A stretch of 64,000 nucleotides of DNA from an uncultured virus (IMG/VR IMGVR_UViG_3300044542_000402) (taxonomy: Duplodnaviria; Heunggongvirae; Uroviricota; Caudoviricetes; Herelleviridae). The position numbers and the translations under genes were made by a program. Under the pieces are notes generated by a model. It was not told where the DNA came from. It was given only the letters and a program-made list of their open reading frames with translations, and ran no database searches. The stretch lies in the IMG/VR virus record IMGVR_UViG_3300044542_000402; one strand, 5' to 3'. Numbering within the stretch: the first letter of the stretch is position 1; each line of letters starts with the position of its first letter. Below are positions 20,980-50,488 of this stretch, piece after piece.

Positions 20980-21141
20980 GATGGTCTCCTTGTCTCGATG
21001 TCATTGTTCGCCCCGGAGCAGGCGTTGCCTGCTGTGTACGGAGAAGACACCAGAATCCCGCAGCGCATGCTGCGGGATGCTGGGATTCTGGATATGATGA
21101 TGATCGTTATCCATATCGTCGTGTGGAACGGACCATCAGTC

Positions 21142-21669
21142 ATGCCATCGCAGATCGACGACACCCTCAAGCGGCATCGTGTGCGTCGGTGGTGGCGCGC
21201 TCGGAGCCAGCTGTTCCGGATCGGTGCCGTCATCCTGGCCATTCCCGTTGTCATCGTGATCGCAGTGGTCGGCTTCCTGGGTGTCCACCAGGCGCTGCAG
21301 CCGGATCCGCCGCCTCCCGTGCCGCAGACCGCGGAGGGGTATCAGATTCCCTACGACCATCTCGATGGTGCATATTTGAGTCAATGGTCTGATTACAAGA
21401 TCATCGATGACACCCATATCGCTATTGAGTTTGGAATGAGCGATGTTCGTGATGGTCATGAGGTTGATTGTTTCAGGCATGTTGTCAAAGTCGAGAAATC
21501 GGACACCGCTATTACGATATCTATGTACACTCGAAATATGGCCGACAAGTACGAGTATTGCAGGTTCGAGTCACGTACTATGATGCAGATGGCGTGGACC
21601 GGGTATTACGTACTTGTCGATGTGGGATCCCCGATTCATGGTCGAGAAGTTGTCGATGGTGGGCGTTGA
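21142..21669 (+). CDS. Membrane-anchored extracytoplasmic protein, paralog A
   Basis: Basic N-terminus, TM helix, PDPPPP linker, two Cys, C-terminal DVGSPIHGREVVDG. Confidence 0.7.
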   Translation: MPSQIDDTLKRHRVRRWWRARSQLFRIGAVILAIPVVIVIAVVGFLGVHQALQPDPPPPVPQTAEGYQIPYDHLDGAYLSQWSDYKIIDDTHIAIEFGMSDVRDGHEVDCFRHVVKVEKSDTAITISMYTRNMADKYEYCRFESRTMMQMAWTGYYVLVDVGSPIHGREVVDGGR

Positions 21670-21686
21670 TGAATTAGCGGGGGTAT

Positions 21687-22830
21687 CTATTTTCTATTTG
21701 AGGTATTGCTGTCCAGCTGGTGATACATCAGCGCCGTGTCGGCATTGTTCAGTTTACCCAGAAGGGTGTCCTTGCTTGTCTTCATGGGGCTGCCGTCGGT
21801 GGGCCAGCGCTCTTTTCCTTGGAATGTACCGATGACGCTGGGACCACCTGGTTGATATTCGATGAATGATGCGCCGCTCGCGCCTCCGGTGATGGGTTCC
21901 TTGCATGGCATCTGGATTGCACCGGGATAGAGATCGTCTTGATCAGCTGCCGATGAGGTTCCTGTACATTTATAGACATGCGTCTCGTCAGGTCTCGTCA
22001 GGTTGTGCATTCTCTGGATATCTGGGATCGCGTCCTGGGTATCCGTACATCGCCAGCTCCGGCAGTGCATCGTCAATCGCGCCTCTGTTCGGCGAACCGC
22101 CCACTGTCAGACCCATGCCCCCGGTGACTGACTGCAGCGTTGATCCGTCATCCTGCGGTGCGACCTTGAGAAATATCTGATCGCATTTTTCGTTCGTTCT
22201 GTTCGAACCCATCTCATAGATCCAGCAGTCCAGGCCGATAGCGGCTGTGACGTTCCATCGGCCGACGGGTGTCTGGGCGTGTCCTTCACTGTCGATGTAA
22301 TATGCTGGTACGAATGTGACGTCTGACACGGTCGCCTTGTTCTCCGGCCAGATGCAATGCCCGGCCGTGATGAGCAGCGAATCACTGACACTTGTCACAA
22401 CTGTCGCCGTGCACGTCCCGTCTGTTGCCTTACCGTCTTTCGTCTTTGTGCTGAACAGTTTACCCACTGCTCGAGGGTGTTCTATGCCGTACTGGATGAT
22501 CGGTTTCGTCTCGGGTGGGAGCCATGTGTAGTCGGCTGGCCATTCCTCTTTTTCCTCGGGAAACGACGTGGCATTCTGTATGGTCTTGCTGTCGTTCTCA
22601 TCACGTGTATTCAGTCCCGGCTCCTGCTCGTCCTGCGTCTCGGCCATGCGCTCATCGGTCCAGTACCCGTCGGGTGCCGCCGTGAAGTTCTGGATGGTGT
22701 ACCTGGGGTTTGCCTGAGGGCTCGGCGTTGCTGTCGGTGAAGCTGTCGCGAACGGGGCGGTCAATGAACTGATCAGGAGAAGACTTGCCAGCAGTGCCGT
22801 ACCTGTTGCAATTCGATGTTGTTCGTGAAT
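21687..22830 (-). pseudogene. Secreted trypsin-like serine protease, frameshifted
   Basis: Signal-like LLASLLLISSLTAPFATA, TAGHC (His) and CDQIFL (Asp) in one frame; TGGASG (Ser) in another; a 10-bp tandem duplication at 21982-22001 explains the shift. Start uncertain. Confidence 0.75.
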
Positions 22831-23031
22831 GGCATTTCCTATCTGTTGAACATGAATACAGGGAAGCGCCACGTTCGGCGCTTCCCTGTATTCATCCCGG
22901 AGCAGGCGTACACCTGCTCCTGGTTCGTCGGAGAAGCCAGCACCCCGCAGCATGCGCTGCGGGGTGCTGAGATCCTGGATATGATGATGTTGATCGTTAT
23001 TCATATCGTCTTGTGGAACGGACCATCCGTC

Positions 23032-23589
23032 ATGTCATCGCAGATCGACGACACTCTCAAGCAGCATCGTGTGCGTCGCTGGTGGCGCGCTCGGAGCCAG
23101 CTGTTCCGGATCGGTGCGGTCATCATGGCCATCCCTGTGGTCATCGTGATCGGAGTGGCCGGCTTCCCGGGCGTCCACCAGGCGCTGCAGCCGGATCCGC
23201 CGCCTCCCGTGCCGCGGACTGCGGAGGGGTACAGGATCCCGTACACCCACCTTGACGATGCGCATCTGAGTTATTGGGATGATTACAAGATCGTCGATTC
23301 CACGCATGTGCGGATCACGATCGGGTTCACAGGTCCTGTCAAGCAGTATGAAGAGGATTGTTATAGGAACTCGGTGAGTGTTAAGCAATCCTCTGACAAG
23401 ATTGTCATATCCCTCTATACACAAAATGTGAGCGAGGAGTATGAGTACTGCAGGATAGAACCCGGTACTTTTCGGGATTATGCCGCCGAGGGTGATTATG
23501 TGATCGTTGATGTGGGCTCGCCCATCAATGGCCGTAAAATCACTGATGGACGTCATAATCGTAAGATTATCGATGATTATCATCGGTGA
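23032..23589 (+). CDS. Membrane-anchored extracytoplasmic protein, paralog B
   Basis: N-terminus nearly identical to 21142-21669, diverged middle, C-terminal DVGSPINGRKITDG. Confidence 0.7.
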   Translation: MSSQIDDTLKQHRVRRWWRARSQLFRIGAVIMAIPVVIVIGVAGFPGVHQALQPDPPPPVPRTAEGYRIPYTHLDDAHLSYWDDYKIVDSTHVRITIGFTGPVKQYEEDCYRNSVSVKQSSDKIVISLYTQNVSEEYEYCRIEPGTFRDYAAEGDYVIVDVGSPINGRKITDGRHNRKIIDDYHR

Positions 23590-23659
23590 TGTCTATATTC
23601 TGCTCCACCGACGTCGGAGAAACCAGCACCCCGCAGCTCTCGCTGCGGGGTGCCTGTGG

Positions 23660-24276
23660 TCAGTTCAGTGCGATGGTCTCGCCGTCGATGACCACCGTGT
23701 CGACGGCGAACAGCCCGTCGTCGATCTGGGCCGCCAGCGCGGTGCGCAGGCTCACGCCGGGGATGAGTTCGCGGTCGATGTCGGTGTGGGTCTGGCCGAT
23801 CTCCAGGCCTCCGCCCAGGACGGTGATCCGCCCGGTGATCGTGGTCATGCCGGGGTCCCCGGCGACGTCGTTCCAGGTGAGCTTCTTCTCGGCGACGGCA
23901 GTGCTCATGGTGATCTCCTCAGAATCTGGTGATGGTCTTTCCCGTCACCAATCCCGGAGGCAGCTGTGCTGCCTCGGCTGCTGGCTGTTCTTGAAGAAGA
24001 GAAGAACTTGCCCCGCAGCATGACTCTGCGGGGCAGGATTCAAAACGGCGCTGCGGCGGTGAGCATCGGCTCGTGAGCGTCCTGGTAGCCGGCCAGCGCC
24101 ACGGCGGTGCGGTTGTGCGTGTCGGCCGCGTCGACGATCTTCTCGGCGGCCTCGACGAGATCGTGGGCGTCGACGTAGGGACTCAGGATCCACATGGTCT
24201 CCTTGAGCCGGCCTGACAGGACGACGCGGTGCTCGGTCTCGTAGGCGGTGATGATGTCCTCGACGAACAGTTGCAT
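23660..24276 (-). CDS. Two small hypothetical proteins (23660-23908, 24040-24276)
   Basis: Each has a GAGGAG RBS and an upstream hairpin-CCGGG element. Confidence 0.6.
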
Positions 24277-24344
24277 GATGGTCTCCTCGGTTCGGGGCTG
24301 ATGTCACCATCGGCCCCGGAGCAGGCTCCGCCGGCTCGGCCGCC

Positions 24345-25034
24345 TCACTGCTCGGCGAGCAGGTCCCACAGGCTCCGGGCCAGCGCCGTCATCTCGGTGG
24401 AGACCCCGGTCTCGCCGATCCTGTCCAGCCCGTCGACGACGGCCGGGATCACTGTGGCGTACTTGCGCGCACGGCGCAGCATCTTCTCGTCCTCGCCGTG
24501 ATCCATCTGGTGGCCGATCGAGCCGGCGTTGTCCTTGAGGTCGCTGGCCTTGACGAGCAGGGCGGGTGACCCGGAGGCGGCCAGCATGGCGATGTGGTCG
24601 TGATAGCTCGTGCCGTCGGTGGGGTTGGTCACCTCGGACACCAGGGTGGCGATCCGGGCACCGTAGAGGCGCGCCATGGTGACCGGCGGGGTCTCTCCTG
24701 GCGGGCCGAAGACGGCGGCGAGCTCGTCGCCGGCGTCCTCGAGGGTGTCGTGGAGCAGGCCGGCGGCGATGAGCTGCGGGTCGGTGACGCCCCAGCGGAC
24801 CAGGCGTAGCGCCACCCGCAGCGGGTGCTCGATGTAGGGCACCCTGGGCAGGTCGCCGCGCATCGAACGGGTCTGGTGGCGGTGGAGGAAGCCCGCCATG
24901 GTGACGGCCGAAGTGATCAGTTCGGAGGCGTCGGGCATGAGGCGGCCGGTCTCCCGGTCCAGCTCCAGGACGAGCATGGCGGAGTCCATGGCCTTCAGCG
25001 GGACGCGCGGAAAGGTGGTGGGTAGTGCGGTCAT
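24345..25034 (-). CDS. HD-domain (p)ppGpp hydrolase-like protein (Mesh1/small alarmone hydrolase type)
   Basis: HRHQTR, PYIEHPLRVA, AGLLHDTLED, VSEVT, LVKASDLKDN motifs of the RelA/SpoT hydrolase domain. Confidence 0.8.
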   Translation of the reverse strand: MTALPTTFPRVPLKAMDSAMLVLELDRETGRLMPDASELITSAVTMAGFLHRHQTRSMRGDLPRVPYIEHPLRVALRLVRWGVTDPQLIAAGLLHDTLEDAGDELAAVFGPPGETPPVTMARLYGARIATLVSEVTNPTDGTSYHDHIAMLAASGSPALLVKASDLKDNAGSIGHQMDHGEDEKMLRRARKYATVIPAVVDGLDRIGETGVSTEMTALARSLWDLLAEQ

Positions 25035-25184
25035 GTTGATCCCCTCCTGGAGTGCGCCGTTGAGGATGTGTGTCATCGACCACCCCGGAGACGGCTGTGC
25101 CGGCTCTGCCACCGGGCCGCCTCGAGGAGACGGGAGAAGAGGATCCCGCCCCGCAGCGGTGCTGCGGGGCGGGATCTGATCATC

Positions 25185-25331
25185 GGTGGATCCTGCGGGA
25201 TTCGAACCCGCATCCTCCGTGCGTCGCCATGCGACTGGCCTGTCCCCCGGATCTCCCCTGCCGGTGGTTGTCGAGGAGTCGAACCTCGGGGAGCCGGAAC
25301 GCCGGATGCTCGGCCGTCGAGCTGAGGACCC
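25185..25331 (-). ncRNA. tRNA-like RNA with Ala identity elements and a large insert in the anticodon arm
   Basis: Acceptor GGGTCCT/AGGATCC (G3:U70), A73, CC; D-arm GCTC/GAGC; T-arm GCGGG-TTCGAAT-CCCGC; about 75-80 nt in place of the anticodon loop. Confidence 0.55.
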
Positions 25332-25417
25332 TTCGTCATCCACCCCGGAGCCGGCTTCGCCGGCTCCGTCACCATGACCCCCACCCCGCTGCATTGCAGC
25401 GGGGTGGGTTCTGCGGT

Positions 25418-26138: not shown

Positions 26139-26213
26139 TGGTGGAGCACGAGGGACTCGAACCCTCTCCTCCTGCATGCGGAACAGGTGCGCGACCGGTT
26201 GCGCCGGTGCCCC
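26139..26213 (-). tRNA. tRNA-Ala(CGC), with atypical C8 and C33
   Basis: GGGGCAC/GTGCTCC acceptor with G3:U70, D stem GCGC/GCGC, anticodon arm CCTGT-TCCGCAT-GCAGG, T arm GAGGG-TTCGAGT-CCCTC, encoded ACCA. Confidence 0.75.
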
Positions 26214-26420
26214 GGAGGCTCGTGGGGCCTTTCACCCCATCTCCCGGAGACGATCCGGGCGCTCTTCTCGACCCGCGTCCCGTGCGAGGGACGCGGGTTC
26301 GGCCGCGGGTGAAGTGACGTTCATCGGGGTCGCACCCCCGATGGCGTTCACCGTTCGCGGTTGAGCCAGCTTGCCAGTGCTTCTCCCGGATGCCGCGCTG
26401 CGGCATCGAGATTCGTGTTC

Positions 26421-29390: not shown

Positions 29391-29646
29391 GATGGTTCTC
29401 CCTGTGAGGTCGATGAGGGTGTGTCGCCGCCTCCCCCGGATCGGCTCTGCCGATTCCCGGTTCAGTTCGTCCTCGTGTTCCAGTCCGTCCCGGCTCCGAC
29501 AAGGGGCTGGACCCGGTCTGTGAGGACCCTGGGAGAATGTGCGGATCGGATCGCACATGTGCATGGCCATGCCCTGGTCCGATAGGATCGTGGTCATCGT
29601 GGCATTGAATGCCCATTCGTCATCATCTTGAGAAAGGACGTCTCAC

Positions 29647-30096: not shown

Positions 30097-30507
30097 TCAG
30101 GCCAGAGCGGGCTCGGGCTCAGTCGCGGGGACGGCCACCGCGCCGGCGCGGGCGGCCAGCCGCTGCTCGACGACGGCCTTGGAGTCCAGGAACTTCACGC
30201 CGCGGATGTCGGGGTTCACGGTGAGCTCGTAGACGTCCTCGCCGCCCTTGGCGTAGTGGTCCAGCTGCAGGGAGCCGGAGATCGTCACGAGATCGCCGGT
30301 GTGCAGGTGCGAGAAGGGGCTGTTCGCCAGGTCGCGCACGTAGGTCTTGAACGGGACGGCGTCGGAGTCGACGCCGTTCTTGTCGGTGTAGGTGCGGTCG
30401 GCCATGACGGTGAAGCGCACGGTGGCCGAGCCGTCGCGGTTGCCGAAGGCCTTGGGGTCACGGGCCAGACGGCCGGTGACAACGACAGTGTTGGAGGGGT
30501 TGCTCAT
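30097..30507 (-). CDS. ssb: Single-stranded DNA-binding protein (copy 1)
   Basis: NTVVVTGRLARDP, LHTGDLVTISGSL OB-fold pattern; no acidic C-terminal tail. Confidence 0.85.
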   Translation of the reverse strand: MSNPSNTVVVTGRLARDPKAFGNRDGSATVRFTVMADRTYTDKNGVDSDAVPFKTYVRDLANSPFSHLHTGDLVTISGSLQLDHYAKGGEDVYELTVNPDIRGVKFLDSKAVVEQRLAARAGAVAVPATEPEPALA

Positions 30508-30784
30508 GAGGGCTCCTTGAGAAGGATGTGCGGATGTGCGGCCCCCGTCACCGGGGGTCGCGAGGTTCTGCGATGTGGTTCTTCGGTTCCTGTCCCGGAT
30601 CAGCTTCTGCTGATGGGACGCCGGCCCCTGCTGAAAGGGTTGGTGAGGGCGGTCCTCCCGCGGCCGGTACGGTGCGCGGGAGGACCTGGATGCGTGTATG
30701 GCTGTACGAGGCATCCCGGTGGTTTCCCCGGATCGGCTGTGCCGATCGGAACCCCGGGGACCGGCCGGTCCCCGGATCCCGATG

Positions 30785-35223: not shown

Positions 35224-37975
35224 CTACTGGTGCGCCGTCGGGCCGTATCCCCGGTCGGCCAGAAAGGCTGCGACCAGGATCCAGGACGTGTCGACGATCT
35301 CGTCGCCCCACTCGTCGTCATGGCTCCATGTGGCGATCTCCTCGACGCCCTGCCGCAGGGCGGCCGCGAACCCTTCGAGGTCGTCGGCGCTGGCCCACTC
35401 GACGACCGAGAGGGAGAACTGTCCACGGATCCGCAGTCGGATCGCGGTGCGCGTCCCGCTCAGCAGGTCGATGCGCCGGGGCTCCCGGGGGTGCTCGGGA
35501 CGGAACTCCACCATGCCGGTGATCGTCGTGCCCCGGCCGTTCTTCTGATCGCCGAGCAGGACCAGACCCACGGACTCCAACTCCGCAGCACCATTCACCC
35601 GGATCACGGTGCGATCGGCCATCGTGATGATGTTGTGACCCATCGACGCCACGGATCGTCCGTTGAGGAGCCGGGCTACGTCGCCGGGCGTGGCGTTCTT
35701 GATGCACTGCAGATGCGGGGCCGCGCTCATCACATGCTCCCGTCGTCGGTGTTCTGCGGGTTCTCGGCCGTGTCGTCCCGGTGGATCCAGCCGGCCGCCA
35801 CGAGGTGCTCCGCCAGCCACCGTGCGGCCTGCGGGTCCGACTCGAAGGTCGGGTCATCGGTGAGATCGCCGATGAGCTTCTCGACGATGGTGTGGTCGAT
35901 CACAATGGACTCCTTGTCAGATGGATGGTGGCCGGGTCCGATCAGATCTCGGACTGCACGGTTCCGTGCCGGGCGACCTCGGTCAGCTCGACCGGGACGT
36001 ATTCGGGCCGTCCGTACTCGTTGGTGATCAGGACGGTGGCGTACAGGTCGTCCAGATAAACGATGCGGCCCTTGACCGGGCAGGCCCTGTTGTCGACGGC
36101 GAGAGTCTGGCCGGCGGCGAGTGGTGTGCCGGACGAGTCAAGGGGTGCGGGCCCGGCGGGAACGAGGTCGCGTACCGGATCGTCCGCCGGGAGCCCGCCG
36201 GGGTAGAGATCGATGAGGTACTCGGGCAGGTCCTCGTCGTCCAGGAAGCCGGACACGGCGTCCTCGGCGTCATCGGCGATGGAGGCGTCGCCGGTCAGGC
36301 GGGCGATGCGACGAGTGCGAAGAATGGTGATGGCCGCTTGACGGCGTTCGTGGCTGAATCCCATGCTGTGACTCCTTGCTGTCGATGGTGAAGATGATTC
36401 AGGACTTCTGGTCGTACCTGGCGCTCACAGATGATGAAAGAGGGGGAACAGGTCGGCCCCGCACTCCGAACAGGACTCATCCCAGTTCGCGCCGTCGATG
36501 CCCAGGGTGTGACCGTTGGAGTCGACCGGTTCGCCGCAGATCTCGCAGGTCATGACGTCGTCATCGTCGGTCAGCAGGGCCTGGACGACGCTGCGGGCCA
36601 TCTCGTCGTAGTCCTGGCCGTCGAGGGTCTCCAGTACGTCGGCCACGCGCCGCAGCGATTCCTCGCCGGTCAGGATGGTCTGCACGGCCCGGGTCATGTA
36701 CTCGGCCATGTCGGACTCGGGGCCGTACAGCTTCTCGGTGTCGTCTCCGGCGACGCAGGCACCGTACGACTCGGCCTGGGCGTCGACGGCGGAATGGATG
36801 CGGCCCAGGCCACTGGTGGGACTGATGTTGCGCATGACGGTTCTCCTCAGAACTTGATGGTCCGGTCTGTGTACTCGATGGCGTGCAGGTGCACCTGGGG
36901 GCACTCCAGGATCCGGTTCCAGGTCGCCCGGCTCATCTCGTTCCGCACGACCCTCTGGTGGATGCGGGCTCCCAGCAGGTCCAGGCTCACGTGGACCGCG
37001 ACGATGTCGGCCTCCGGGTCGGACTCGGCGACAGCGTGCTTCTCGATGAGTGCAGTGCTCATGGCGGTCTCCCCCACTGGTGATGATCTTTGTCACCACC
37101 ACCCCCGGATGCAGCTGTGCTGCATCGGTTGACAAGCTGCTTGTTGCAACGGAGAGGACGGAGAAGAAGAAGAAGCACCCCGCCGCATCATGCGGCGGGG
37201 TGCTTCAGGGTCGGTGATCAGATCTTTTTCACATCGTGGATGCCGTTGACGTAACGCGAGGTGAGATCGAGGAGCCGGCAGCGGGCGAGGTGCTCGTCCG
37301 GACGGTTCGTGGTGAATGATCTCGCCCACTGCGAGACGGCCTCAATCTCGCGGGGATCGATGGCTCCGGCCGCCTCGGCGAGTGCGCCGATTTTCTCGGT
37401 GAGGGCACTGAGATCGATCGATTCGATGCTGGGCAGTTCGTAGTCCTGGAACGACATGGGGCCTGTCCTTCTTCGTTCGTGATGGATGGTGGCGGCGGGA
37501 CCGCTGCGATCTCAGGTCACGATGGACTGGATGCGGCCGACGGTCTCGCCACCACCGACGGGCTCGCGGTGGCACCGGTCAGCTTCGAGGTGTCGACGAT
37601 GGCGTCGGCGGGTACGTGGATCTCGATGCGGATCCGGTGGAATGCGTATTTCAGGCCGTCGGGGGCCCTGCAGCCGGTGAACTCCAGTCGCCGGCCGCTC
37701 CGGTCCCGCTCGTCGTAGTTCTTGATCGTCCGGTCGGAGTAGTCGCAGCCCAGGAACACGATCCGGGGTCCGTGACCGGCCCGGGTCTCCCCGGCCGCGA
37801 CGTCCTGGTAGATCACGACGTCGCCGGCCGCCTTGCGGTAGTCGGAGTAGACGGGCTGTTCCTTGACCGCCCTGGTGACCATCGTCGTGTACTCGCTGGA
37901 CAGCAGGACCTGGTGCAGGCCGCCGTCGGAGCCGCGCCACGCGTAGCGGTAGTCGATGATCTCCCCGGAGTGCAC
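35224..37975 (-). CDS. Run of small hypothetical genes (35224-35730, 35942-36364, 36425-36835, 36847-37062, 37218-37457, 37517-37975)
   Basis: Co-oriented ORFs, most with GGAG-type RBS; no recognisable family. Confidence 0.5.
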
Positions 37976-38136: not shown

Positions 38137-40452
38137 TCAGGCCACGACGGCCCAGGATCCCTCGATGCGCTCCAGGTCGTCGAAGACTCGGGCGAGGTCC
38201 AGCCTCGCAGTGCCGTCAACACCCGTGATGGTGTAGCCGTTGCGCAGCCGGTCCCAGATCCCGGCCGCGACGAGGCGCTCCTCCAGACGGGCGTACCGCT
38301 GGGGCAGGTGGTCGGCGCGCCCCCGCCACACCCGTTCCAGGGCGGTGCGCGCGCGCTTGCGCTCGGTGTACTCGTCGGCCTTGACCTTGGAGCGGTAGTC
38401 GGCGGCGTCGATGAGCACGACGCCCTCGTCGGGCCGCCGTCCGGCCTGTTCCAGCAGGGCCCTCAGCTCAACGGGGTCATCGGCGGTGCCCACGGTGGCG
38501 GCGCACTCCAGGCCGAACCGCTTCGCGATGCCGTCGCGAATCTTGTCGTCAGTGCTGAACTCCACGGTGTTCCTGATGGCGTCCAGCAGGACGAGCCGGT
38601 CGGGTCCGGTCTCGGCGATCGGATGGGTGTCGTGGGCGCTGATGACCTCGAAGACCGCGGTGGTCCCGGTGCGCTCCAGCATCCCGGCCAGGGCCTGTCT
38701 GCCGTCGGCTCCGATCTGGCCGGTGAGCAGCCGGTCGGCGAACCGGGAGTAGGCGGTGACCCCGGACTTGGAGAACACCGTCAGCTCGCCGTCGATGGAT
38801 GCGACCAGGGCCAGGTACCCGTTCCACTTCTTCCGGGCGATGACCGGCCAGGCGGTGATGTCCGGGTTCAGCCAGCCGTCGAGATCACGGCCGGGGGCTT
38901 CACCGATGTGGAAGAACTTCTCGTAGCCGCGGGCCGCGATGCTGTGGCGCTCAGTGTCGATGAACAGGCCTCGGGCGTGCATGGTGAGCTCGTCCCAGGC
39001 CCCGTCGACGAACGCCTTCCTGGTGAAGTTGCAGGCCACCAGGTTCTCGTGGTCCTCGACGGGACGGACCTTCACCTGCTCGGAGGCGCGCATACGCTCC
39101 AACAGGTCGTCGATCCTCTGCGACTCGCTCATGGTGCGCCTCCTGTCCCAGGGCCGCAGCCGGTTGTGGGCGGCCGTCGCCGGATCGACGCGGTCGTCGT
39201 ACTCGTGGATCTCGGGATCGGGATCGCGGTTCAGCACGGCGGCGCGAATCGCACCGCCGGTCGAGGCCCCGGTCTCCAGGCAGACGACGGGCCGGCCGTC
39301 CGGGGTGAACCGGACCGGCTGCACCGCGGGCTGGCCGGCGGCCGAGTTGCGGTGGCCGTGGAGCTGATATCCCGCCAGGGGCATGTCGCCGACGTTGTAG
39401 GAGGACTTGGCCCGGTAGGTGTGGGCCCGGTCCCCCAGTCCGTAGACGCACTCGACCTCGCTGACGCGCAGCAGACCGTCGATCTCCAGTCTCGCCCTGG
39501 TGTCGGTCCCGACGCCGCCGTGGGTGACGAGCCATTCCGGCCCGTCGCCCACCCGGACCCTCAGGGCCGGGATGGTGGAATCGACGAAGGCGGTCTGCTC
39601 GGCGGCCATGATCCCGGCTCCCAGCAGGGCGTCGCGGGTGTCCCGGGTGTCGGGGAACCGGCCGGTGCCGGCGGTGCCGGTGTTGATCGCCCGCAGGTTG
39701 AGCTCGTGGTTGCCGCACACCACGCTCGCCCGGTGCTGGTCCATCAGCTCGTGCACGATGGTCCAGACGCCCACGGGGTCCGGCCCGCGGTCGAACAGGT
39801 CGCCGGCGAACACCCAGTGGGTGCCGGGCTCGTCCAGATCCGTGACCGCCTCGTGCAGGGCGGCGGCGCACGAGTGGACGTCGCCGACCACGACGACTCG
39901 CCGCGCGGTGACGGTGGGTACGACGTTGATTCCGGTGATGACCTCGTCGTAGTTGTGGATCAGCTCGGTCGTGTTGGCACCACTGATGACCTCGGTCAGG
40001 GCCGGGCTGAACGTCTTCTCGGCGCATCGGGCGTGTATGTCTCCCAGCACGTCCTCGTCCACCCGTTCGATACCCCTGTTTCTGTTGCGTTTCAGCAGGA
40101 CGTCGAGAGGCGTGTCGCCCTGGACGTCGATGAGATATGTGGCGTACCCGTATGTGTGGGCGAGCCGGGCGAGCTTCGTCTGATCCTTGATGCGTGAGGC
40201 CGTGGAGTCGAAGAAGATCGTGGTCCCGGCTGCCATACGGGACTCAAGTGCGGCGTGAGTCGCGGAAATGACGTTCTTCTCGGCCTCGGGCCGCAGTCGC
40301 AGGCTGTTGTCGCCGTCTGCAGCCGGGAAAGGCGCGCTGAACATGGACCTGAACTGGTCGTATCCGATGGTCAGGGATGTCAGCCCGAGAAGCCGGATCA
40401 ACCGGGTCTTCCCGGATCCCGGTGCTCCGTGGAGCAGGAACAGGGCGCGCAT
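38137..40452 (-). CDS. Polynucleotide kinase - metallophosphoesterase - T4 Rnl1-type RNA ligase fusion
   Basis: GAPGSGKT P-loop; GDVHS, GDLFDRGPD, GNHE, THGG, HGH phosphoesterase motifs; ARGLF, RGYEKFF, KKWNG, FEVI, EGVV, KVK ligase motifs. Confidence 0.88.
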   Translation of the reverse strand: MRALFLLHGAPGSGKTRLIRLLGLTSLTIGYDQFRSMFSAPFPAADGDNSLRLRPEAEKNVISATHAALESRMAAGTTIFFDSTASRIKDQTKLARLAHTYGYATYLIDVQGDTPLDVLLKRNRNRGIERVDEDVLGDIHARCAEKTFSPALTEVISGANTTELIHNYDEVITGINVVPTVTARRVVVVGDVHSCAAALHEAVTDLDEPGTHWVFAGDLFDRGPDPVGVWTIVHELMDQHRASVVCGNHELNLRAINTGTAGTGRFPDTRDTRDALLGAGIMAAEQTAFVDSTIPALRVRVGDGPEWLVTHGGVGTDTRARLEIDGLLRVSEVECVYGLGDRAHTYRAKSSYNVGDMPLAGYQLHGHRNSAAGQPAVQPVRFTPDGRPVVCLETGASTGGAIRAAVLNRDPDPEIHEYDDRVDPATAAHNRLRPWDRRRTMSESQRIDDLLERMRASEQVKVRPVEDHENLVACNFTRKAFVDGAWDELTMHARGLFIDTERHSIAARGYEKFFHIGEAPGRDLDGWLNPDITAWPVIARKKWNGYLALVASIDGELTVFSKSGVTAYSRFADRLLTGQIGADGRQALAGMLERTGTTAVFEVISAHDTHPIAETGPDRLVLLDAIRNTVEFSTDDKIRDGIAKRFGLECAATVGTADDPVELRALLEQAGRRPDEGVVLIDAADYRSKVKADEYTERKRARTALERVWRGRADHLPQRYARLEERLVAAGIWDRLRNGYTITGVDGTARLDLARVFDDLERIEGSWAVVA

Positions 40453-40508
40453 GATGATCTCCTTTGGTGAATCGGTGTTCGAGGGCCACCCCGGATCGGC
40501 TGCGCCGA

Positions 40509-41636
40509 TCAGACGGTCTCTCTGGCCGCGAGCGTCCCCGGCACCCGGGTGCGGTAGCCACGGTCCGAGGCCGTCACGAGCGCGTCGAACAGGGCGTCGG
40601 GGTCCGCGGCGAACAGTCCCGCGTTGGGCAGGCTGTTGAGTTCGACGACCACCGGCCTTCCCGGGGTCGCGGTGTCCGCCAGGTCGAGAACGTAGGTGCC
40701 GGGGTGCTCCCGCACCATGCCGGCGGCGGTCTGCGCCAGGTCCGCCACCATCTCGGGAAAGGCGATGACGGGGTCGACGGTGCCGCCGAGTGCCCCGCGT
40801 CTCACCCGCACCCGGTCGTCGAGGACGACCGGGCCGGTGCCGAGACCGACTTCGATGACGTGGTCGGGGTCACGGTCGTAGGGGGTGAACTCCTCGATGT
40901 TCGCGGCACCGGTGACGATCCGTCCGCCGACGACGAAGAAGCGGTACTCGCAGATCATGGGGATCTGCTCACTCACGAGGAAGGCGTCGGGCCGCCCGGC
41001 CAGCAGGTCGAGGTTCCAGCCGAACCCGTCGATGAGGTCGTCCATGAAGCCCTGGTAGTTGCGGCCGGGCAGGTCGATCGCCACCGGGCGGTTCAGTTTG
41101 GACGGCGCGGTCTTGACGACTGCGGACTGAACTCCGGCGTCGCGCCAGGCCTCCAGGGTTCCGATGAGATCGGCCGGGGCCGATCCGGTGCGCTCGGTCA
41201 GTTCGGCGAGCTCACCGGCCTCGAAGAAGCCGGCACGGGCCAGTCGTCGTCCCACATGATGAGCGAGCAGCGGATGGTCCAGCAGCGGGTCGAAGGCGTG
41301 CGGGTTCTCCTCGGCGCGGTCCACCGGCCCCAGACGCCGCGAGAGCTGATCGTCGTTCCAGTTGCGGGCCTCGCGGACGGCCAGCTCCAGGCCCGCCCGG
41401 CGAGCTGCACGGGAGGCGGCCGCCATCCGCGCCACGTCCTCCCAGAAGTCCTGGAGATCGGCCTGCGGGTCGGCCGTTGCGGTGTGGGTGCGCAGGACGT
41501 CGTCGCCGAGTACCCGGGCGCACTCGGCCAGGTCCCGGTTCGCGGCCAGGACCTGGTCCCGGGCCCACGATGGGTCGAACCCGGGGAAGGGGCGCAGGTG
41601 CCCGGAGAACAGCTGGGGCGCGGTGGTGTCGGGCAT
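40509..41636 (-). CDS. ATP-grasp domain protein (DUF4343/R2K-like)
   Basis: VVK, VSEQIPMICEYRFFVVGG, YVLDLA, VVVELNSLPNAGLF. Confidence 0.75.
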   Translation of the reverse strand: MPDTTAPQLFSGHLRPFPGFDPSWARDQVLAANRDLAECARVLGDDVLRTHTATADPQADLQDFWEDVARMAAASRAARRAGLELAVREARNWNDDQLSRRLGPVDRAEENPHAFDPLLDHPLLAHHVGRRLARAGFFEAGELAELTERTGSAPADLIGTLEAWRDAGVQSAVVKTAPSKLNRPVAIDLPGRNYQGFMDDLIDGFGWNLDLLAGRPDAFLVSEQIPMICEYRFFVVGGRIVTGAANIEEFTPYDRDPDHVIEVGLGTGPVVLDDRVRVRRGALGGTVDPVIAFPEMVADLAQTAAGMVREHPGTYVLDLADTATPGRPVVVELNSLPNAGLFAADPDALFDALVTASDRGYRTRVPGTLAARETV

Positions 41637-41706
41637 GGTGGTCTCCTGTGGTGTTGTGATGGTCACCGGCCGCCCCGGATCAGCTGTGCCGATCAGTTCG
41701 ATGCGA

Positions 41707-42012
41707 TCAGCCTTCTGCGATGCCGGTGATGTGGTCGGGTCCCAGCAGTGACGCCGGGACTGCATAGTGCGATTCCCAGGTGCCGTCGTCAAGCTCGAAC
41801 TCATCGTCGAGGCGAGCGGTGCCGTCCTTGATCCAGGCGGTCGGTATTCGCAGGGTGACCACGACGGGTCCGTAGTCCCGTGCGTTCTCGTCGTGATGGG
41901 TCGAGCACCAGATCTCACCGGTGTTCTCCAGGCTCGTGAATTTCCCTGTGGCCCGGATCTGGCGGGCCGCGGTGGCGCTGGTGCGGTGGTACAGGACGAC
42001 AGTGTCGGTCAT
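41707..42012 (-). CDS. Small protein, possible ADP-ribosyltransferase fold
   Basis: LYHRT...AARQI...GKF, IWCST, YG.VV.L pattern, late Glu. Confidence 0.45.
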   Translation of the reverse strand: MTDTVVLYHRTSATAARQIRATGKFTSLENTGEIWCSTHHDENARDYGPVVVTLRIPTAWIKDGTARLDDEFELDDGTWESHYAVPASLLGPDHITGIAEG

Positions 42013-42968: not shown

Positions 42969-43226
42969 TCAGTCCCAGCGGCGGGTGGCGACGCGCTGGT
43001 AGCGGGTCCAGTCCTCGAACGGGACGCCGGTGGCTGCCTCCAGTCTGCGGGCCGTGACGGCACCGACGCCGATTGAGCCGGCGAGGATCGCGTCGAGGGT
43101 CGCAGGCCCGATCCCTGTGTTCAGGAGCCGAGCGACGGCCTGGACCGGGCCGGGCTGGCCGTTCATCCAGGCGCGCAGGCGCAGTCCCGGGGTCGCGGTC
43201 GCAGTGGTGATGACGGATGCGGTCAT
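42969..43226 (-). CDS. HigA/XRE-like HTH protein
   Basis: TPGLRLRAWM...LDAILAG...VTARRLEAATGVPFEDW. Confidence 0.6.
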   Translation of the reverse strand: MTASVITTATATPGLRLRAWMNGQPGPVQAVARLLNTGIGPATLDAILAGSIGVGAVTARRLEAATGVPFEDWTRYQRVATRRWD

Positions 43227-43669
43227 GACGGTCTCCTCGATCGATGTCAGAACACTGTGGTCAATGCCTCTCCCGGATCGACCCCGTCGATCTCCGGTCC
43301 GAGACGCCGGTCCCCCGTCCACCCGGAGGAGACGCCGGGCGGACGGGGGACCTGTGTGTGCGATGTTCGGTTGTCGGATTTGATTGTTCATGGAGTTGTG
43401 GCGACGGCCGGCCGGTGCGAATGATCCGCGTGGGTGCGGGTTCCACCGCGACGCGCCGTCGCCGGGTCCCCGTGCATGCGCGGGGACTGTTCCTGGGGGT
43501 CTGCGACCCGGAGCTGGGGGCCGGGATCGAACCGGCGACCTGCTGTACCACAGAGTCGATTCCGGAGCATCCAGTCATCAGGCGATCGATCTCGCTTCCA
43601 TCGCGCGATTCCAGCGGATCAGAGGAATTCGCACAGGGTCATCGGGGATCAGGAGGTACGCACGGAGGA

Positions 43670-46032: not shown

Positions 46033-46386
46033 ATGCACTCTTCCACAAAGAAAACAGCACTTACGATCGCATCGGTACTCGCGCTCGCCGGAACGTCCGT
46101 CGCCATTCCTACCAACGTGGCTAGCGCGGCCGAGAGTGGAACCCATAAGGTCAGCTGCACTGGAGCACACCATGTACTTGTCCTTAGCTCCACCCATGGA
46201 AGGTACTGCTATCAGGGGTCTGGCAGTATATCCGTCTCCATCTCGAACGTGTACTCCTATGAGTCTTCAGTGAGTGGTCACATGTGGGTAGCGACCACAT
46301 CATCTGGATGGTACAGCGTGAACTTCTACAACGGTGATACCAAGTCCCCAGTCTGGTCGCGTGTGTCGTCCATCTCCATCAACTAA
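46033..46386 (+). CDS. Small secreted Cys-containing protein, possibly killer-toxin/beta-gamma-crystallin-like
   Basis: AGGAG RBS, Sec signal ending ASA, two Cys, beta-rich YCYQGSGSISVSISNV. Confidence 0.6.
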   Translation: MHSSTKKTALTIASVLALAGTSVAIPTNVASAAESGTHKVSCTGAHHVLVLSSTHGRYCYQGSGSISVSISNVYSYESSVSGHMWVATTSSGWYSVNFYNGDTKSPVWSRVSSISIN

Positions 46387-46536
46387 AGGAACATCACCGT
46401 TCACCTCAGATGGCGGAGCGCAGCGCCCACTAAGTCGGAGCTGCGCTCTGTCCGCGTCTGGTACGCTTGGTTCAAGTCCATCGCAGGTAAGAGCTCGCAG
46501 CGAGATGGGCTACGCCGCTTTGAGGAAGGTGTATCG

Positions 46537-47343
46537 ATGAGCGAACCGCACTACTCGCGTCGCCAAGCACTGCACGCCCAGCAGGATGCCGAGGTCAGAG
46601 CCGCCAAGCGCAAGAAGCTTTTCGCGATCATCGGCGGGCTCGTGGTGGTGATCGCCGTCATTGCGGCCGCGATTGGAGTTGTCAACCATCACCGTTCCGA
46701 CGCCGCAGTGGCTTCTGGAGTCACGAGTGCTCAGATCACGCCTCCCGATGGGGACGCTAGAACGGGCATCTACACAGTGAATTCGAAGACCGCCAAGGAA
46801 AACGCACCAACTCTGACTCTCTATGAGGATTATCAGTGCCCGAACTGTAAACAGGCCGAGGAGACCTATGGCCCGGCTATTCAGTCACTGGCGGCCAGCG
46901 GAGATATCAAGCTCCAGTACAGGACACTGACCTTTCTTGACAACAATTATCAGGGCGGTTCGTCATATCGTGCCGCTATGGCTGCGGCGTCGGCTGACAC
47001 GGTTGGGAAGCTTGAGGCCTACCACCGAGTTGTGTACGCTCACCAGCCAGATGAAGGTGTCGGGTTCACTGATGATCAGCTGCGCAACGTGTACGCACGT
47101 GAGGCGGGTATTACAGGGGCGGATCTAGCCAAGTTTCAGAGGTACTACGACACCAAGGCAACCTCCACGTTCGTCAAGAAGGCGGCCTCGGAAGGCCTAA
47201 AGGCTGGCTCGAAGCTCGATAGTCAGTTCGGCACTCCCTTCTTCACGGTGAACGGTAAGAAGTACACCGACTGGCAGACGCTCTCCACCCCGACACCGTC
47301 CAGTCTGTTGGCCTCCATCAAGAAGGCCGCCAATAGCGGCTGA
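46537..47343 (+). CDS. Membrane-anchored DsbA-family thiol-disulfide oxidoreductase
   Basis: TM helix, YEDYQCPNCK, GTPFF cis-Pro loop. Confidence 0.88.
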   Translation: MSEPHYSRRQALHAQQDAEVRAAKRKKLFAIIGGLVVVIAVIAAAIGVVNHHRSDAAVASGVTSAQITPPDGDARTGIYTVNSKTAKENAPTLTLYEDYQCPNCKQAEETYGPAIQSLAASGDIKLQYRTLTFLDNNYQGGSSYRAAMAAASADTVGKLEAYHRVVYAHQPDEGVGFTDDQLRNVYAREAGITGADLAKFQRYYDTKATSTFVKKAASEGLKAGSKLDSQFGTPFFTVNGKKYTDWQTLSTPTPSSLLASIKKAANSG

Positions 47344-47643
47344 GTTGCAGAGCATCTTCCCTAGTCACCGCTCATGCTCATTGGGTCACTTCTTGCGGGG
47401 CGGCCCTAGTGTCCAAGATGGGGTAAGGCCAGATGGCCCATGGTGCGGCCGTGGAGTCCGCGAACACCGCCCAGTAGAGGGCCCGTGGCCCCGCGGCCGC
47501 CGGCCTCACTGACGACGACCAAGATCAGCCCAATGATGGACCTGAGCTGGGATGAATGAGTACTTATGTGAGTACCACCCTTATCAGCGCATCTCCGAGA
47601 AAGCTACCGACTCGCTACTTGAGCCCGCAATGACGCAATTCAC

Positions 47644-47719
47644 TGGAGCCGGGGGCCGGGATCGAACCGGCGACCTGCTGTTTACGAGACAGCCGCTCTA
47701 CCTGTTGAGCTACCTCGGC
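47644..47719 (-). tRNA. tRNA-Thr(CGT)
   Basis: Canonical 76-nt cloverleaf GCCGAGG...GCTGT-CTCGTAA-ACAGC...GTTCGAT...CCCCGGC-T-CCA. Confidence 0.92.
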
Positions 47720-47760
47720 GCGGAACCTCTCGCAGTGCTGCGAGGGGTCCGGGTGCCGTC

Positions 47761-48180
47761 TCAGACGGTGGCCTCGAGCTCGGGATCGGCGGCGGCCGCG
47801 GTGGTGGCGGCGGCGACACGGGCCGCGAGACGGTCGGCCACGATCTTCCTGGAGTCGAGGAACTTGACGCGGTCGGGCTCGACGGTCGGCTCGTAGACGT
47901 CCTGGCCGTTCTTGACATAGTGGTCGATCCTGAGCGCACCGGTGATCGTCACCAGGTCGCCCTTGTGAAGGTGGCTCCACAGCTTGAGGTAGACGTCTTG
48001 GGAGGCCACGTATGTCTTGAACGGGATGGCGTCGGAGCCGACGCCGTGCTTGTCGGTGTAGGTGCGGTCGGCCATGACCGTGAATCGTACGGTGGCCGAT
48101 CCGTTGCTGTTCGGGAAGACCCTGGGGTCGCTGGCCAGCCGGCCGGTGATGACGACGGTGTTGGAGGGGTTGGCGCTCAT
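47761..48180 (-). CDS. ssb: Single-stranded DNA-binding protein (copy 2)
   Basis: Close paralog of 30097-30507. Confidence 0.85.
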   Translation of the reverse strand: MSANPSNTVVITGRLASDPRVFPNSNGSATVRFTVMADRTYTDKHGVGSDAIPFKTYVASQDVYLKLWSHLHKGDLVTITGALRIDHYVKNGQDVYEPTVEPDRVKFLDSRKIVADRLAARVAAATTAAAADPELEATV

Positions 48181-48327
48181 GAGGTGCTCCTGGGAGGTGT
48201 GTGGAGGTTTCTGTGATGACTGTGGTCATCTGTTGTCCCGGATCAGCTCCTGCTGATGGGACCCCGTCACGGTGCGTGACGGTGTGCTTTCTGCTCTGCC
48301 CCGCGTCATCTGCGATGACGCCGGTCC

Positions 48328-48401
48328 GGTGATCCCTGACGGAGTCGAACCGCCGACCCCCCTACCCATCGGGGGAAGTGATGCCGTTTCAACAGAGGAT
48401 C
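48328..48401 (-). ncRNA. Degenerate tRNA-like sequence
   Basis: Acceptor GATCCT/GGGATC-A-CC, T arm GGCGG-TTCGACT-CCGTC; irregular D and anticodon arms. Confidence 0.45.
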
Positions 48402-48626
48402 TTGGGGGCGGTCCTCCCGCGGCCTGACGGTGCGCGGGAGGACCTGGATGCGTGTATGGCTGTACGAAGCATCCCGTTTCTTCCCCGGATCAGACTCTGT
48501 CTGATCCACCGCTCACTGACCCGTTGGTCATCAGCACGCCCTCTCGCCCGCCGCACTCCCGGAATGGACGAGAGGTCCTGCTCCGGTGTGGAGCAGGACC
48601 TCTCGCGGGTCTCGTGTGCTGATGTG

Positions 48627-50273
48627 TCAGACGGGCCATTGCGCCCAGAACAGGACGGCCGCTCCCTCGGGCAGGTGTTTCAGGCAGGCCGCCTTCGCCT
48701 CATCCCAGGTCCCGGCCGCTGCGTGGATCGTCGTCTTCTCGCACTCGTCGGTGTCCTGGTGGACTATGGTGCCGTCCTCGGCGGTCGACAGGCGGTCCAG
48801 GGCGATGCGGGCGTAGGCGGTGATCACCCTCTCAGGCTACCGGTGGTGCTCCGGAGGCGTGTCCGTACCGGGTTGCGCGGACGGGTTGCCGATGGCCTGG
48901 TCGTCCAGATAGGCATCGAGGTCCATGAGGCGCTGGAGTTGCTCGTCCATCGTGGCGTCGGCGGGGGGCTCCTCGGCCAGGTGCGCCGTGAAGTCCCCGA
49001 GGTCGACGGTCTCGCCGCGCCGGGACTGCTCCAGCCCGGCGGCCAGCAGTTCACGGAATCTGTCGTGATCGGTCATGTCTTCATCTCTTTCTTCCAGTGG
49101 TGGCGATCAGAGGTTCTCGGCGAGGATCCTGTAGGTGCCCGGTTCGGTGAGCATGAGATCGTCGCGGACACGGACAGCCTCGAAGATCTCCTCGGTCTCG
49201 GCGGACACCCGCACGATGGATCGGTGCATCATGACGCCGCCACCGTTACGGGTCCGGGACACGGGCAGGGATGTCGGTCATGCCGGTTCTCTCTGTGAAG
49301 GTGGGGGCGGGGATGCGCCCGTGTGTCCTGGGGTGGCGGGTTCACAGCGGGGTACTACGTGCGACGTGTTCTAGATGAGGTCGTGGCTCGCGATGACGTC
49401 GGGCAGGGTGAACCCGATGATCACGGCCAGGGCGACGGCCAGGCCGCCGAGAGCCGCCACGGCGGCCATGCGGTGATCAGAGGACAGCCCGGTGGCGGTC
49501 CGGGCCGACCAGGCGGCGTGCGCCGCGGTGATCGAACCGGCCGTCTCCAGGACCACGGCGAACCAGGTGGTGATCATGCGAGGCCGGCCTGTGTGGCCGG
49601 CGTCAGCAGGGCCAGGGCGATGATGACGGCCAGGGCCACGAGGAGTCCGGCGGTGACGATCCAGCGGTACCCGGACGTCACCGCCACCCCGCCCGCCAGG
49701 ATCGTGTAGACGGTGCTCACGATCGCGATGATCATGGTCGGTCCCGCGCTCATCGCTCCGGTCCGTTCCCGTGGGTGGTCCGGATCGTCGACGGACCGGT
49801 GATCCCCGAGTCGCCCCGGTCCATCTCGTGCCTGCGACGGAGTGCGGCCAGTTCGTCGCGGGTCGCCACGGCCCCGGGGCGGGCCGGGCGCTCCTCGAGG
49901 GCCCGGACACCGGTCATCGGCCGATGATCCGTCAGACGGGCCTCCAGCGATCGGTGGCGGGCGACGACCGGGGCGATGACGGCGATCCCCATGAGGATCA
50001 GCAGGACCCAGGACTGCAGGGGGCTGAGTGGCATCACGGCGCTCACCCCTCCCCGATGATGCGGATGTCGTAGTCGAAGGAGGACTCCGGGTCGCCCAGG
50101 CCCCGGTTCAGGTCCTCCAGGTGCAGCAGGCGTGCGAGCACCTGCTCGGCCTGCCGGCGGGTGCAGCCGTCGATCGAGACGGTGAACGGGTGCTCGCCCA
50201 CCGGATCGTCGGGTACGGACGTCGGAGCGGCCGGAGCCGTGAGCACCGTTCCCGGTGCGATGAGAGCAGTCAT
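48627..50273 (-). CDS. Run of small hypothetical and membrane genes (48627-48827, 48837-49076, 49371-49577, 49750-50046, 50043-about 50273 and others)
   Basis: Co-oriented short ORFs, several hydrophobic. Confidence 0.45.
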
Positions 50274-50488
50274 GATGCGGACTTTCGTGACGAGGGTGTG
50301 GGGCCGTCGGTCGAGCGGCCTGTCACGGGCCGGCCCGGACCCGGTGCCCCGGGTCCCTCGGGGATGATCATCCCTGAGCCTTTCTCCATGATCCGCATCG
50401 TATTCCAATCAGCATTCTGATACTGTTCTCATGGTCACATCCGTGTCCGTTCCGACTGGAGACGGATCATCGCGAAGGAAGGTCATTC

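Follow-up and report, generated by a model that had tools for sequence, protein, structure and literature searches.

A strand-specific, covarying hairpin motif ahead of genes and RNAs in PolB-carrying actinobacterial elements

Hairpin copies on the minus strand of the window

The stretch of 64,000 nucleotides (nt) analysed here, referred to throughout as the window, is recorded in IMG/VR as an uncultured virus (IMGVR_UViG_3300044542_000402). Co-oriented genes and RNAs on its minus strand, among them those for two SSB proteins, a kinase-phosphatase-RNA ligase, an ATP-grasp protein, an HD protein and tRNA-like RNAs, share a compact hairpin motif with a CGG tail (Table 1), as a preliminary description of this DNA had observed. 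That description listed 18 coordinates at which CCC(C)GG runs into an inverted repeat, and this arrangement was present at all 18. Its count of about 18 hairpins needed two adjustments: 17 of the listed sites are true hairpins, and one unlisted copy was added at ~55017, all on the minus (gene) strand. Among the listed copies, 13 have stems that pair perfectly over at least 6 base pairs (bp), and four (22896, 24314, 25083 and 41673) contain one non-Watson-Crick pair. The copy listed at 26210 is doubtful, since it forms only ~4 pairs and neither covariance model reported it at E≤10.

Strand preference was quantified between positions 20001 and 56000 by counting perfect hairpins (stem of at least 6 bp, loop of 3-4 nt) that are followed by CCGGG. 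This count gave 16 hairpins in the minus sense and 2 in the plus sense, against means of 0.445 and 0.45 and a maximum of 3 in 200 dinucleotide-preserving shuffles, and the single orientation claimed for the motif was thereby upheld. Two of the 16 minus-strand matches (40815 and 30757) lie outside the motif family. A loose hairpin scan that allowed one mismatch in 7 bp showed no strand bias and was uninformative. When a covariance model was built from eight copies, a check that the preliminary description had proposed, it recovered, of the copies held out, six with E<0.05, another three with E of 0.3-0.6 and that at 55009 only at E 9.5, and every one of the 13 best matches in the window was on the minus strand. 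Plus-strand model matches at 9064, 12980, 16955, 39277 and 15487 were examined and rejected as not being the motif. No copy was found at 1-20 kilobases (kb), where minus-strand replication genes are separated by intergenic gaps, nor in 10 kb of plus-strand genes.

Each copy opens with a stem of 7-8 bp that starts GA(G/T)C and ends G(A/C)TC (GAKC...GMTC). Its apex reads GC-RNA-GC, a 3-nt R-N-A loop closed by a C-G pair; the three-nucleotide loop described as usual occurs in 14 of the 18 window copies. The stem is followed by CGG and a G or A, then by about nine variable bases and a box, nTGAnn (variants ATGACA, GTGACA, TTGACC, TCGAAG and others), at a fixed spacing of 11 nt, with the G of the box exactly 14 nt past the stem. 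Across 57 strict copies from ten elements, which include relatives described below, C1, G2 and G3 of the tail are conserved at 98-100%, G14 at 91% and A15 at 70%. The loops of these copies read, on the sense strand, GGA (17 copies), ACA (16), AGA (11), GCA (6), GAA (5) and AAA (2); on the template strand the loop reads T-N-Y. The reading of the box as a leaderless start codon was rejected because many copies have CG, not TG, at that place. Frequently the box is the 5' arm of a second stem, and in several copies either the G run or the box opens one; among six orthologous copies a second hairpin starts at the box in three, with fold z-scores that are mostly not significant. The tail GATCCGGA, or GACCCGG (for example at 50321-50355), resembles GACCCGGA, the 8-bp sequence recognised by TraB in the clt sites of Streptomyces plasmids; no FtsK/TraB domain was detected in the window.

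The pairing of the stem is maintained by compensation. Its outer pairs (GA.../...TC) and the apical C-G pair do not vary, and change at the middle pairs is always compensatory. In the window copies such changes were seen at five of the eight pairs, 96% of the alignment cells were paired, and the observed score was reached by 0 of 500 shuffles, in agreement with the earlier remark that stem sequences vary while pairing is kept. For 45 copies of the 7-bp class from the ten elements, pair 8-16 was AU in 27, GC in 17 and GU in 1, and pair 9-15 was GC in 35 and AU in 10; 97.5% of cells were paired and 0 of 500 shuffles matched the score, although the strict scanner that collected the 57-copy and 45-copy sets required at least six of seven pairs and so inflates their pairing percentages. 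Among the strict copies 21 of 411 pairs were non-Watson-Crick. A pyrimidine-pyrimidine mismatch (C.T, C.C or T.C) recurs at the fourth pair of the 8-bp class (GAGC...) in two distant elements, represented by window copies 24314 and 25083 and by Microbacterium loci L123 and L124, as if this position were conserved as unpaired.

Loop centre, CGG and TGA follow one another at intervals of about one helical turn and so share one face of the helix. This phasing would also suit a duplex operator or 'stoperator'-like site, at which a global repressor or activator would bind the palindrome, CGG and TGA near an unrecognised promoter. The GGTGG run that precedes the box in several copies is compatible with such a site, as is the divergent HicB/RHH-like gene block within the motif-bearing region. 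So too are the many copies of one orientation in short intergenic spaces, a feature shared with the stoperators of cluster A phages, which PMC3203893 mentions. However, a rigid dimer on duplex DNA neither needs nor tolerates compensated middle pairs and stems of either 7 or 8 bp, and no separate promoter is visible; we consider an operator improbable.

Genes, terminators and RNAs around the copies

The motif had been placed 30-90 nt upstream of a start codon or RNA. In eight copies the CGG tail lies 36-53 nt ahead of a Shine-Dalgarno sequence and ATG, and for copy 29433 the distance is ~48 nt (by eye); of three further copies, those at 60 and 90 nt agree with the stated range and one, at 115 nt, exceeds it. 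The remaining copies stand ahead of non-coding RNA, except 22896, which has a low-GC stretch downstream. Seven of the genes in the 36-53 nt set share a very uniform ribosome site, GGAGAYCNYCATG; it occurs seven times, always after a motif copy and never on the plus strand. On its upstream side, the hairpin adjoins or overlaps the stop codon of the preceding gene (cTGATC).

A GC-rich hairpin directly after stop codons might act on the upstream gene only, as its intrinsic terminator or as a 3' stabiliser, and have no downstream role. The copies lack a T tract, however, and have instead the nearly invariant CGG and the downstream box; canonical terminators with T tracts occur separately in the region. 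In addition, tandem arrays of the motif have no genes in between, its linkage runs to the downstream gene and it is absent from host genomes, as set out below. We therefore regard a terminator as very improbable. Copies 37102 and 23953 sit 30-45 nt behind such T-tract terminators. Between the terminator and the ATG of these two copies there is no TA dinucleotide, and hence no TANNNT -10 sequence. With a canonical terminator upstream and no -10-like sequence before the ATG, the hairpin is not the terminator at these two copies and transcription must restart there.

The preliminary description saw no clear -35/-10 boxes, and no sigma-70-type pair was found at any copy; what it had overlooked is the conserved nTGAnn box. 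A TTGACA-like box is present, but no -10 follows 16-19 nt on and the box stands just 19-36 nt before the ATG, so that a sigma-70 promoter (-35 TTGACA and -10 TANNNT at 16-19 bp) was rejected. A sigma-54 promoter was likewise rejected: the GG...TG spacing of 11 nt fits, yet in 70% of copies an A follows, and five genomes gave no Sigma54_DBD match above the cut-off. No ordinary promoter was detected for the whole block of genes between 43 and 21 kb.

Several of the RNAs appear to begin at or near the tail. The preliminary description had made the GGGG after the hairpin at 26210 the first bases of a tRNA-Ala, and Rfam does report a tRNA whose first base is the first G after CTCC, but the hairpin there is poor and ARAGORN made no call. 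In the tRNA-like RNA, GGUGGAU (25344-25338) can pair with AUCCACC to form a 7-bp acceptor-like stem beside the T-arm GCGGGUUCGAAUCCCGC, and there are two T-arm-like hairpins, GAGGTTCGACTCCTC and GCGGGTTCGAATCCCGC. The Rfam model for transfer-messenger RNA (tmRNA) scored 19.3 bits, below its gathering threshold, and ARAGORN was silent. Two small-RNA-like units, one upstream of each SSB paralogue, are near-identical from the CGGGG tail to a closing GC hairpin GGTCCTCCCGCG...CGCGGGAGGACC, and each is followed by a further motif copy and then the SSB gene. Their own motif hairpins belong to different stem classes, and neither unit had an Rfam match. Because the tRNA starts with the first base after CTCC, the acceptor strand of the tRNA-like RNA starts inside CGGGG and the small-RNA units are alike from the tail onward, we place the probable RNA start at or near the tail, as the second stems opened by the G run or the box would also suggest.

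An RNA start at the tail could also arise by processing. The hairpin would then be a signal in a long polycistronic transcript, namely a site for an element-encoded endoribonuclease, a stabiliser or an antitermination site, and a cut at the stem foot would leave RNAs that start at the G run. The coincidence of tRNA and tRNA-like 5' ends with the tail is as expected of processing too. Such a signal would accord with a hairpin that adjoins or overlaps the upstream stop codon, with a 43-21 kb block that has no detected ordinary promoter and with an excess of G.T over A.C among the sense-strand mispairs of the strict copies (seven against three); moreover, GNA-type triloops occur in RNA as well. 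On the other hand, two copies stand directly behind canonical terminators, only one inner G.T was found while compensated A-T/G-C swaps are common, unlike in most RNA helices, and no nuclease candidate is conserved alongside the motif. The fixed one-turn spacing of loop centre, CGG and TGA would also suggest recognition as DNA. A role in RNA thus appears rather unlikely. The preliminary description had left start, processing and antitermination side by side. Its structure-based, strand-specific 5' signal stands; we favour the start role over the other two because copies stand behind canonical terminators and the motif keeps company with the gene downstream of it.

Table 1. Motif copies and other features of the window
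Feature	Coordinates	Strand	Remarks
Motif copy	20999..21034	-	Stem CAGCAGGC/GCCTGCTC, loop AAC, CGGGG, box ATGACA; ATG at 20979
Motif copy	22883..22919	-	4-nt loop, one T.G pair; E 0.046; low-GC stretch downstream
Motif copy	23940..23975	-	GAGGCAGC-ACA-GCTGCCTC; ATG at 23908; canonical terminator adjoins upstream
Motif copy	24302..24337	-	8-bp class, C.T mismatch; ATG at 24276
Motif copy	25071..25106	-	8-bp class, C.T mismatch; ATG at 25034 of HD-domain protein
Motif copy	25331..25366	-	GAGCCGGC-GAA-GCCGGCTC; ahead of tRNA-like RNA
Listed copy 26210, doubtful	26198..26235	-	Only CTCCGGGG in common; hairpin ~4 bp
Motif copy	26372..26407	-	GATGCCGC-AGC-GCGGCATC; tRNA ~170 nt downstream
Motif copy	29422..29455	-	Ahead of small Zn-ribbon gene (MICPNC...); copy kept by orthologues in five other elements
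Motif copy	30581..30615	-	4-nt loop; ahead of SSB gene 30097-30507
Motif copy	30714..30747	-	Ahead of 80-nt small-RNA-like unit
Motif copy	37091..37126	-	GATGCAGC-ACA-GCTGCATC; ATG at 37062; canonical terminator adjoins upstream
Motif copy	40477..40510	-	GA overlaps TGA stop of ATP-grasp gene; kinase-phosphatase-ligase ATG at 40452
Motif copy	41661..41694	-	One G.T pair; ATG at 41636 of ATP-grasp protein
Motif copy	43259..43292	-	GATCGAC-GGG-GTCGATC; first of 43-21 kb block; ATG at 43226
Motif copy	48224..48258	-	4-nt loop; ahead of second SSB gene 47761-48180, then tRNA-Thr 47647-47719
Motif copy	48471..48506	-	Ahead of small-RNA-like unit 2
Motif copy	50321..50355	-	GACCCGG-GGCA-CCGGGTC, box GTGACA
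Unlisted motif copy	55001..55034	-	GATCGGC-CAT-GCCGATC; 115 nt ahead of open reading frame (ORF) of 694 amino acids (aa); weak by model (E 9.5)
Ribosome sites GGAGAYCNYCATG	43236, 41646, 40462, 37072, 24286, 23918, 20989	-	Very uniform; each behind a motif copy
Canonical intrinsic terminator	24009..24035	-	GC stem and T-rich tail; upstream of copy 23953
Canonical intrinsic terminator	37172..37206	-	16-bp GC stem and TTCTTCTTCT; upstream of copy 37102
tRNA	26142..26213	-	Ala identity pair G3:U70, anticodon CGC (alignment); Rfam 46.4 bits
tRNA-like/tmRNA-like RNA	25184..25344	-	~160 nt; begins inside CGGGG tail of copy 25343
Small-RNA-like unit 1	30651..30730	-	80 nt; upstream of one SSB paralogue
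Small-RNA-like unit 2	48410..48487	-	78 nt; upstream of other SSB paralogue
PolB-like protein, 1125 aa	117-3494	-	Exonuclease and family-B polymerase motifs DFTSYYPN, KLILNxASG, TNTDG
RNA-repair-like set	38137-41918, 26142-26213, 47647-47719	-	Fused kinase-phosphatase-RNA ligase (771 aa), R2K ATP-grasp protein, HD protein; beside tRNA-Ala, tRNA-Thr and tRNA-like genes

The motif in related PolB-carrying elements

The window encodes a PolB-like protein whose relatives served as a marker for comparable elements. Copies of the motif were found in PolB-carrying elements of Arthrobacter, Brevibacterium, Streptomyces, Kribbella, Promicromonospora, Pseudarthrobacter, Saccharopolyspora, Actinomadura and Microbacterium, nine genera in all besides the window. 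These copies share the strand of the PolB gene and for the most part are situated 20-60 kb upstream of it; over the ten elements, strict copies total 57 in sense orientation against 2 in antisense. We then searched five genomes (33.7 Mb) with the simple pattern GATCNNCNNNGNNGATYCGG, a test of pairing that is unbiased because the pattern demands no pairing at NN. Near PolB there were 18 matches in four genomes and one more, probable, in the fifth, all perfectly complementary; elsewhere in these genomes none of the 14 matches was perfectly complementary, and one had a single G.T. The complementary matches were confined to ~60 kb around PolB, on the PolB strand. Since perfectly complementary matches occur only near PolB, the motif is specific to the elements and is not a host-wide signal.

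Linkage of the motif runs to the gene that follows it. Six groups of homologous downstream genes are shared across elements and account for 32 of the 57 copies, with SSB in seven elements and the Zn-ribbon gene in six, against only three groups of two for the upstream genes. In the relatives in which it was found, the SSB gene stands behind two to four tandem copies with a period of 42-48 nt (Arthrobacter, Streptomyces, Promicromonospora, Pseudarthrobacter, Saccharopolyspora and Actinomadura). The Brevibacterium element also carries an array of 19 tRNAs on the polymerase strand (locus L099, 934-5827), with no motif copy ahead of it. Firmicute PolB loci contained no comparable motif within ±10 kb. 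Opposite-strand model matches at ~7 kb in several PolB loci were discarded as long, GC-rich, terminator-like hairpins containing TCCGGGG, and 15 single matches from a pattern search of IMG/VR were taken as chance because only three had complementary stems and none had a second copy nearby.

Primase-helicase, PolB, SSB and RecJ-like genes were kept in all the relatives compared, which raises the possibility that the motif is a priming site, the sense-strand hairpin directing the P4/D5-type primase and the family-B polymerase when single-stranded, in a transferred strand or a lagging-strand template. Precedents are the complementary-strand origin of phage G4 and the ssiA/ssiB sites of RSF1010, in which a short stable hairpin and a conserved single-stranded stretch are read by primase on one strand only. 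Besides the cognate machinery, the extra-stable loop type and the few G.T pairs, both on the sense strand, would fit such a role, as would the restriction to one strand, with no copy ahead of plus-strand genes; should the VirB4-like and topoisomerase genes be the last to enter, transfer would be of the sense strand. The G4 and RSF1010 signals, however, occur once or twice per replicon inside an origin, whereas the motif lies upstream of ~18 genes and is linked to those genes, not to the upstream ones. Its patchy, regulon-like distribution, with the gaps at 1-20 kb and in the plus-strand genes, does not fit replication priming, nor do copies ahead of small RNAs or the narrow distance to start codons; moreover, the terminator-shielded genes would remain without a promoter. 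Priming is an unlikely explanation on balance.

The remaining gene content places the window among mobile elements. Its GC content is ~67%, and the sequence was met only in sludge and digester metagenomes; none of the 17 sequencing runs listed with it is identified as RNA. Near-identical DNA was absent from the plasmid and phage collections, both of which were searched with the window. Pfam, NCBIfam and PDB sequence searches gave no match for the 1125-aa PolB-like protein. Its relatives number hundreds at ~50% identity in many actinobacterial genera, mostly chromosomal, with Firmicutes at 35-43%; among the candidates scored, 435 reached E≤0.001, and reference genomes of many genera held 101 PolB loci. 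A tblastn search with PolB matched three plasmids and no phage record. Because the PolB relatives are mostly chromosomal, with three plasmids and no phage record, we assign the window to a large family, so far undescribed, of elements that are integrative or plasmid-like and bring replication genes of their own. Also encoded in the window are a P4/D5-type primase-helicase, a RecJ-like nuclease, Lsr2, a ParM-like protein, two SSBs and a topoisomerase. A MobV-like relaxase match is weak (35.8 bits against a cut-off of 100), and no such relaxase was found in the five relatives' stretches compared. A 735-aa protein was placed near VirB4/TraG ATPases by Atlas, which we treat as a lead only, and Atlas returned nothing for a 422-aa protein.

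Proximity of the RNA-repair-like set to tRNA and tRNA-like genes suggests a defence against tRNA-cutting nucleases; the kinase-phosphatase-ligase protein had no relative in IMG/VR. Elsewhere in the window a near-perfect 54-nt palindrome (60025-60078) lies just ahead of a conserved 328-aa gene and the VirB4-like gene, and was matched on both strands by an unrelated microRNA model. In the Arthrobacter relative (locus L098, 13234-16538) PolB appears as two overlapping ORFs of 562 and 697 aa, through a frameshift or an assembly error.

A proposed hairpin-dependent start signal and its parallels

The downstream genes shared among elements, the terminators upstream, the tandem arrays before SSB genes and the regulon-like distribution argue for a 5' signal at which transcription starts. 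Our preferred reading, held tentatively, is that the motif serves an element-specific and probably early regulon as a promoter or initiator whose action depends on structure, with transcription starting at the G run. In place of -35/-10 boxes, such a promoter would depend on the hairpin formed by its DNA. An element-encoded factor might recognise the hairpin when it is extruded or single-stranded, and the first nucleotide of the RNA would belong to the G run that adjoins the stem on its 3' side. If +1 is there, the loop centre would fall at about -10/-11, as in the promoters of the phage N4 virion polymerase. Transcripts would start with GG(G/A) and carry the TGA box at about +12 to +14, often within a 5'-proximal stem, followed by the ribosome site GGAGAYCNYCATG.

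Several observations weigh against a hairpin-dependent promoter. PF00940 had no match in the genomes of five relatives, although the same search matched none of the control genomes either. Within the elements of five genomes there was no Sigma70_r2 match, no Sigma54_DBD match in five genomes passed the cut-off, and none of the 68 window ORFs scanned had a polymerase or sigma-factor domain. NCBIfam searches of 26 candidate-factor proteins returned only weak MobV and weak ParB matches, and the large ORFs of the Arthrobacter element showed nothing polymerase-like. The R-N-A loop closed by C-G, an extra-stable DNA mini-hairpin type, lies on the non-template strand, whereas that of N4 lies on the template strand. 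The conserved box, 12-17 nt past the stem, has no role in the promoter model. Conservation extends to about +24, and +1 could equally lie at ~25 nt past the stem; that position fits the one-turn spacing and the decay of conservation after about +24, but would cut into the downstream RNAs. At the tRNA-linked copy 26210 the hairpin is poor, the fold of the tRNA-like RNA is no better than that of shuffles (z -0.32), and the pairing percentages of the strict sets are inflated by the scanner, as noted above.

Two parallels had been drawn in the preliminary description, to N4 and to Frpo promoters, and neither amounts to membership. According to PMC4496689, N4 promoters are conserved in sequence from -17 to +1 and have a GC-rich heptamer centred at -11, with inverted repeats and a 3-base loop, of GNA type on the template strand. 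The window motif is like these early promoters in its short hairpin, whose 3-nt loop is of purine-N-A type and has a C-G closing pair, in its mixture of fixed and freely covarying stem positions with a GC-rich heptamer at the apex, in the loop centre at -10/-11 if +1 is the G run, and in the prominence of SSB genes in the regulon. It differs in its longer stems (7-8 bp against 5-7 bp), in having the loop on the non-template strand, in contrast to the sheared G:A GNA loop of the N4 template strand, in its ~18 copies per element against three in N4, and in the extra conserved box (TGA at +12 to +14). Its carrier is an integrated or plasmid element of Actinobacteria, whereas N4 is a schitovirus. 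With the loop on the other strand, the motif resembles N4 promoters in geometry but is not a member of the N4 family; no T7/N4-like polymerase was found, in a search that lacked a positive control and might have missed a very divergent enzyme. Nor does it belong to the Frpo class. PMC12672017 describes Frpo-type promoters as large stem-loops, mined with a folding-energy limit of below -75 kcal/mol, in which -35/-10 boxes are rebuilt for the host holoenzyme. The motif shares with Frpo and ssi sites the arrangement of strand-specific folded signals, several per element, ahead of ssb and establishment genes, and a dual priming role is conceivable; in contrast, its hairpin spans 17-19 nt, lacks -35/-10 boxes and is absent from host genomes.

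Among mobile elements of Actinobacteria, the nearest 'start-associated' parallel is provided by the start-associated sequences (SAS) and extended SAS (ESAS) of cluster K mycobacteriophages. According to PMC3203893, SAS is a 13-bp sequence, GGGATAGGAGCCC, at the ribosome site, and a subset has upstream 17-bp inverted repeats with variable spacers, for which the authors report no hairpin-supporting compensation. Both systems are repeats of actinobacterial mobile elements (11-19 copies, one orientation) ahead of some non-structural genes, conserved with gene families and absent from the host genome, and the window also has a uniform ribosome site. Unlike SAS and ESAS, the window hairpin is compact, lies 36-53 nt upstream of the start and clearly covaries, and sequence and position differ. 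No description of the motif turned up in our full-text literature searches, and this agrees with the earlier view that it is not a described family.

A broader proposal, possible but doubtful, is that Actinobacteria possess, in these sequences, a new class of promoters that depend on a hairpin, which would be the first 'structured DNA' system of N4 type outside the N4 group. They would be read by an as yet unrecognised polymerase or specificity factor of the very widespread PolB-element family, and would turn on SSB, RNA-repair and other establishment genes in single-stranded or highly supercoiled DNA, for example on cell entry. If one of the rival explanations holds, the motif would still be a new cis-element of a self-replicating element, either a processing site or a multi-copy priming signal. 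The covariance model and the simple pattern together provide a handle with which these elements and their early regulon can be delimited, and the motif offers a route by which to hunt for the missing polymerase or factor. It may also yield an orthogonal, compact promoter for Streptomyces and its relatives. If the motif is a promoter, the reading of a DNA hairpin instead of -35/-10 boxes would not be confined to one coliphage, but would extend to a large family of mobile elements in Actinobacteria that has gone unstudied.

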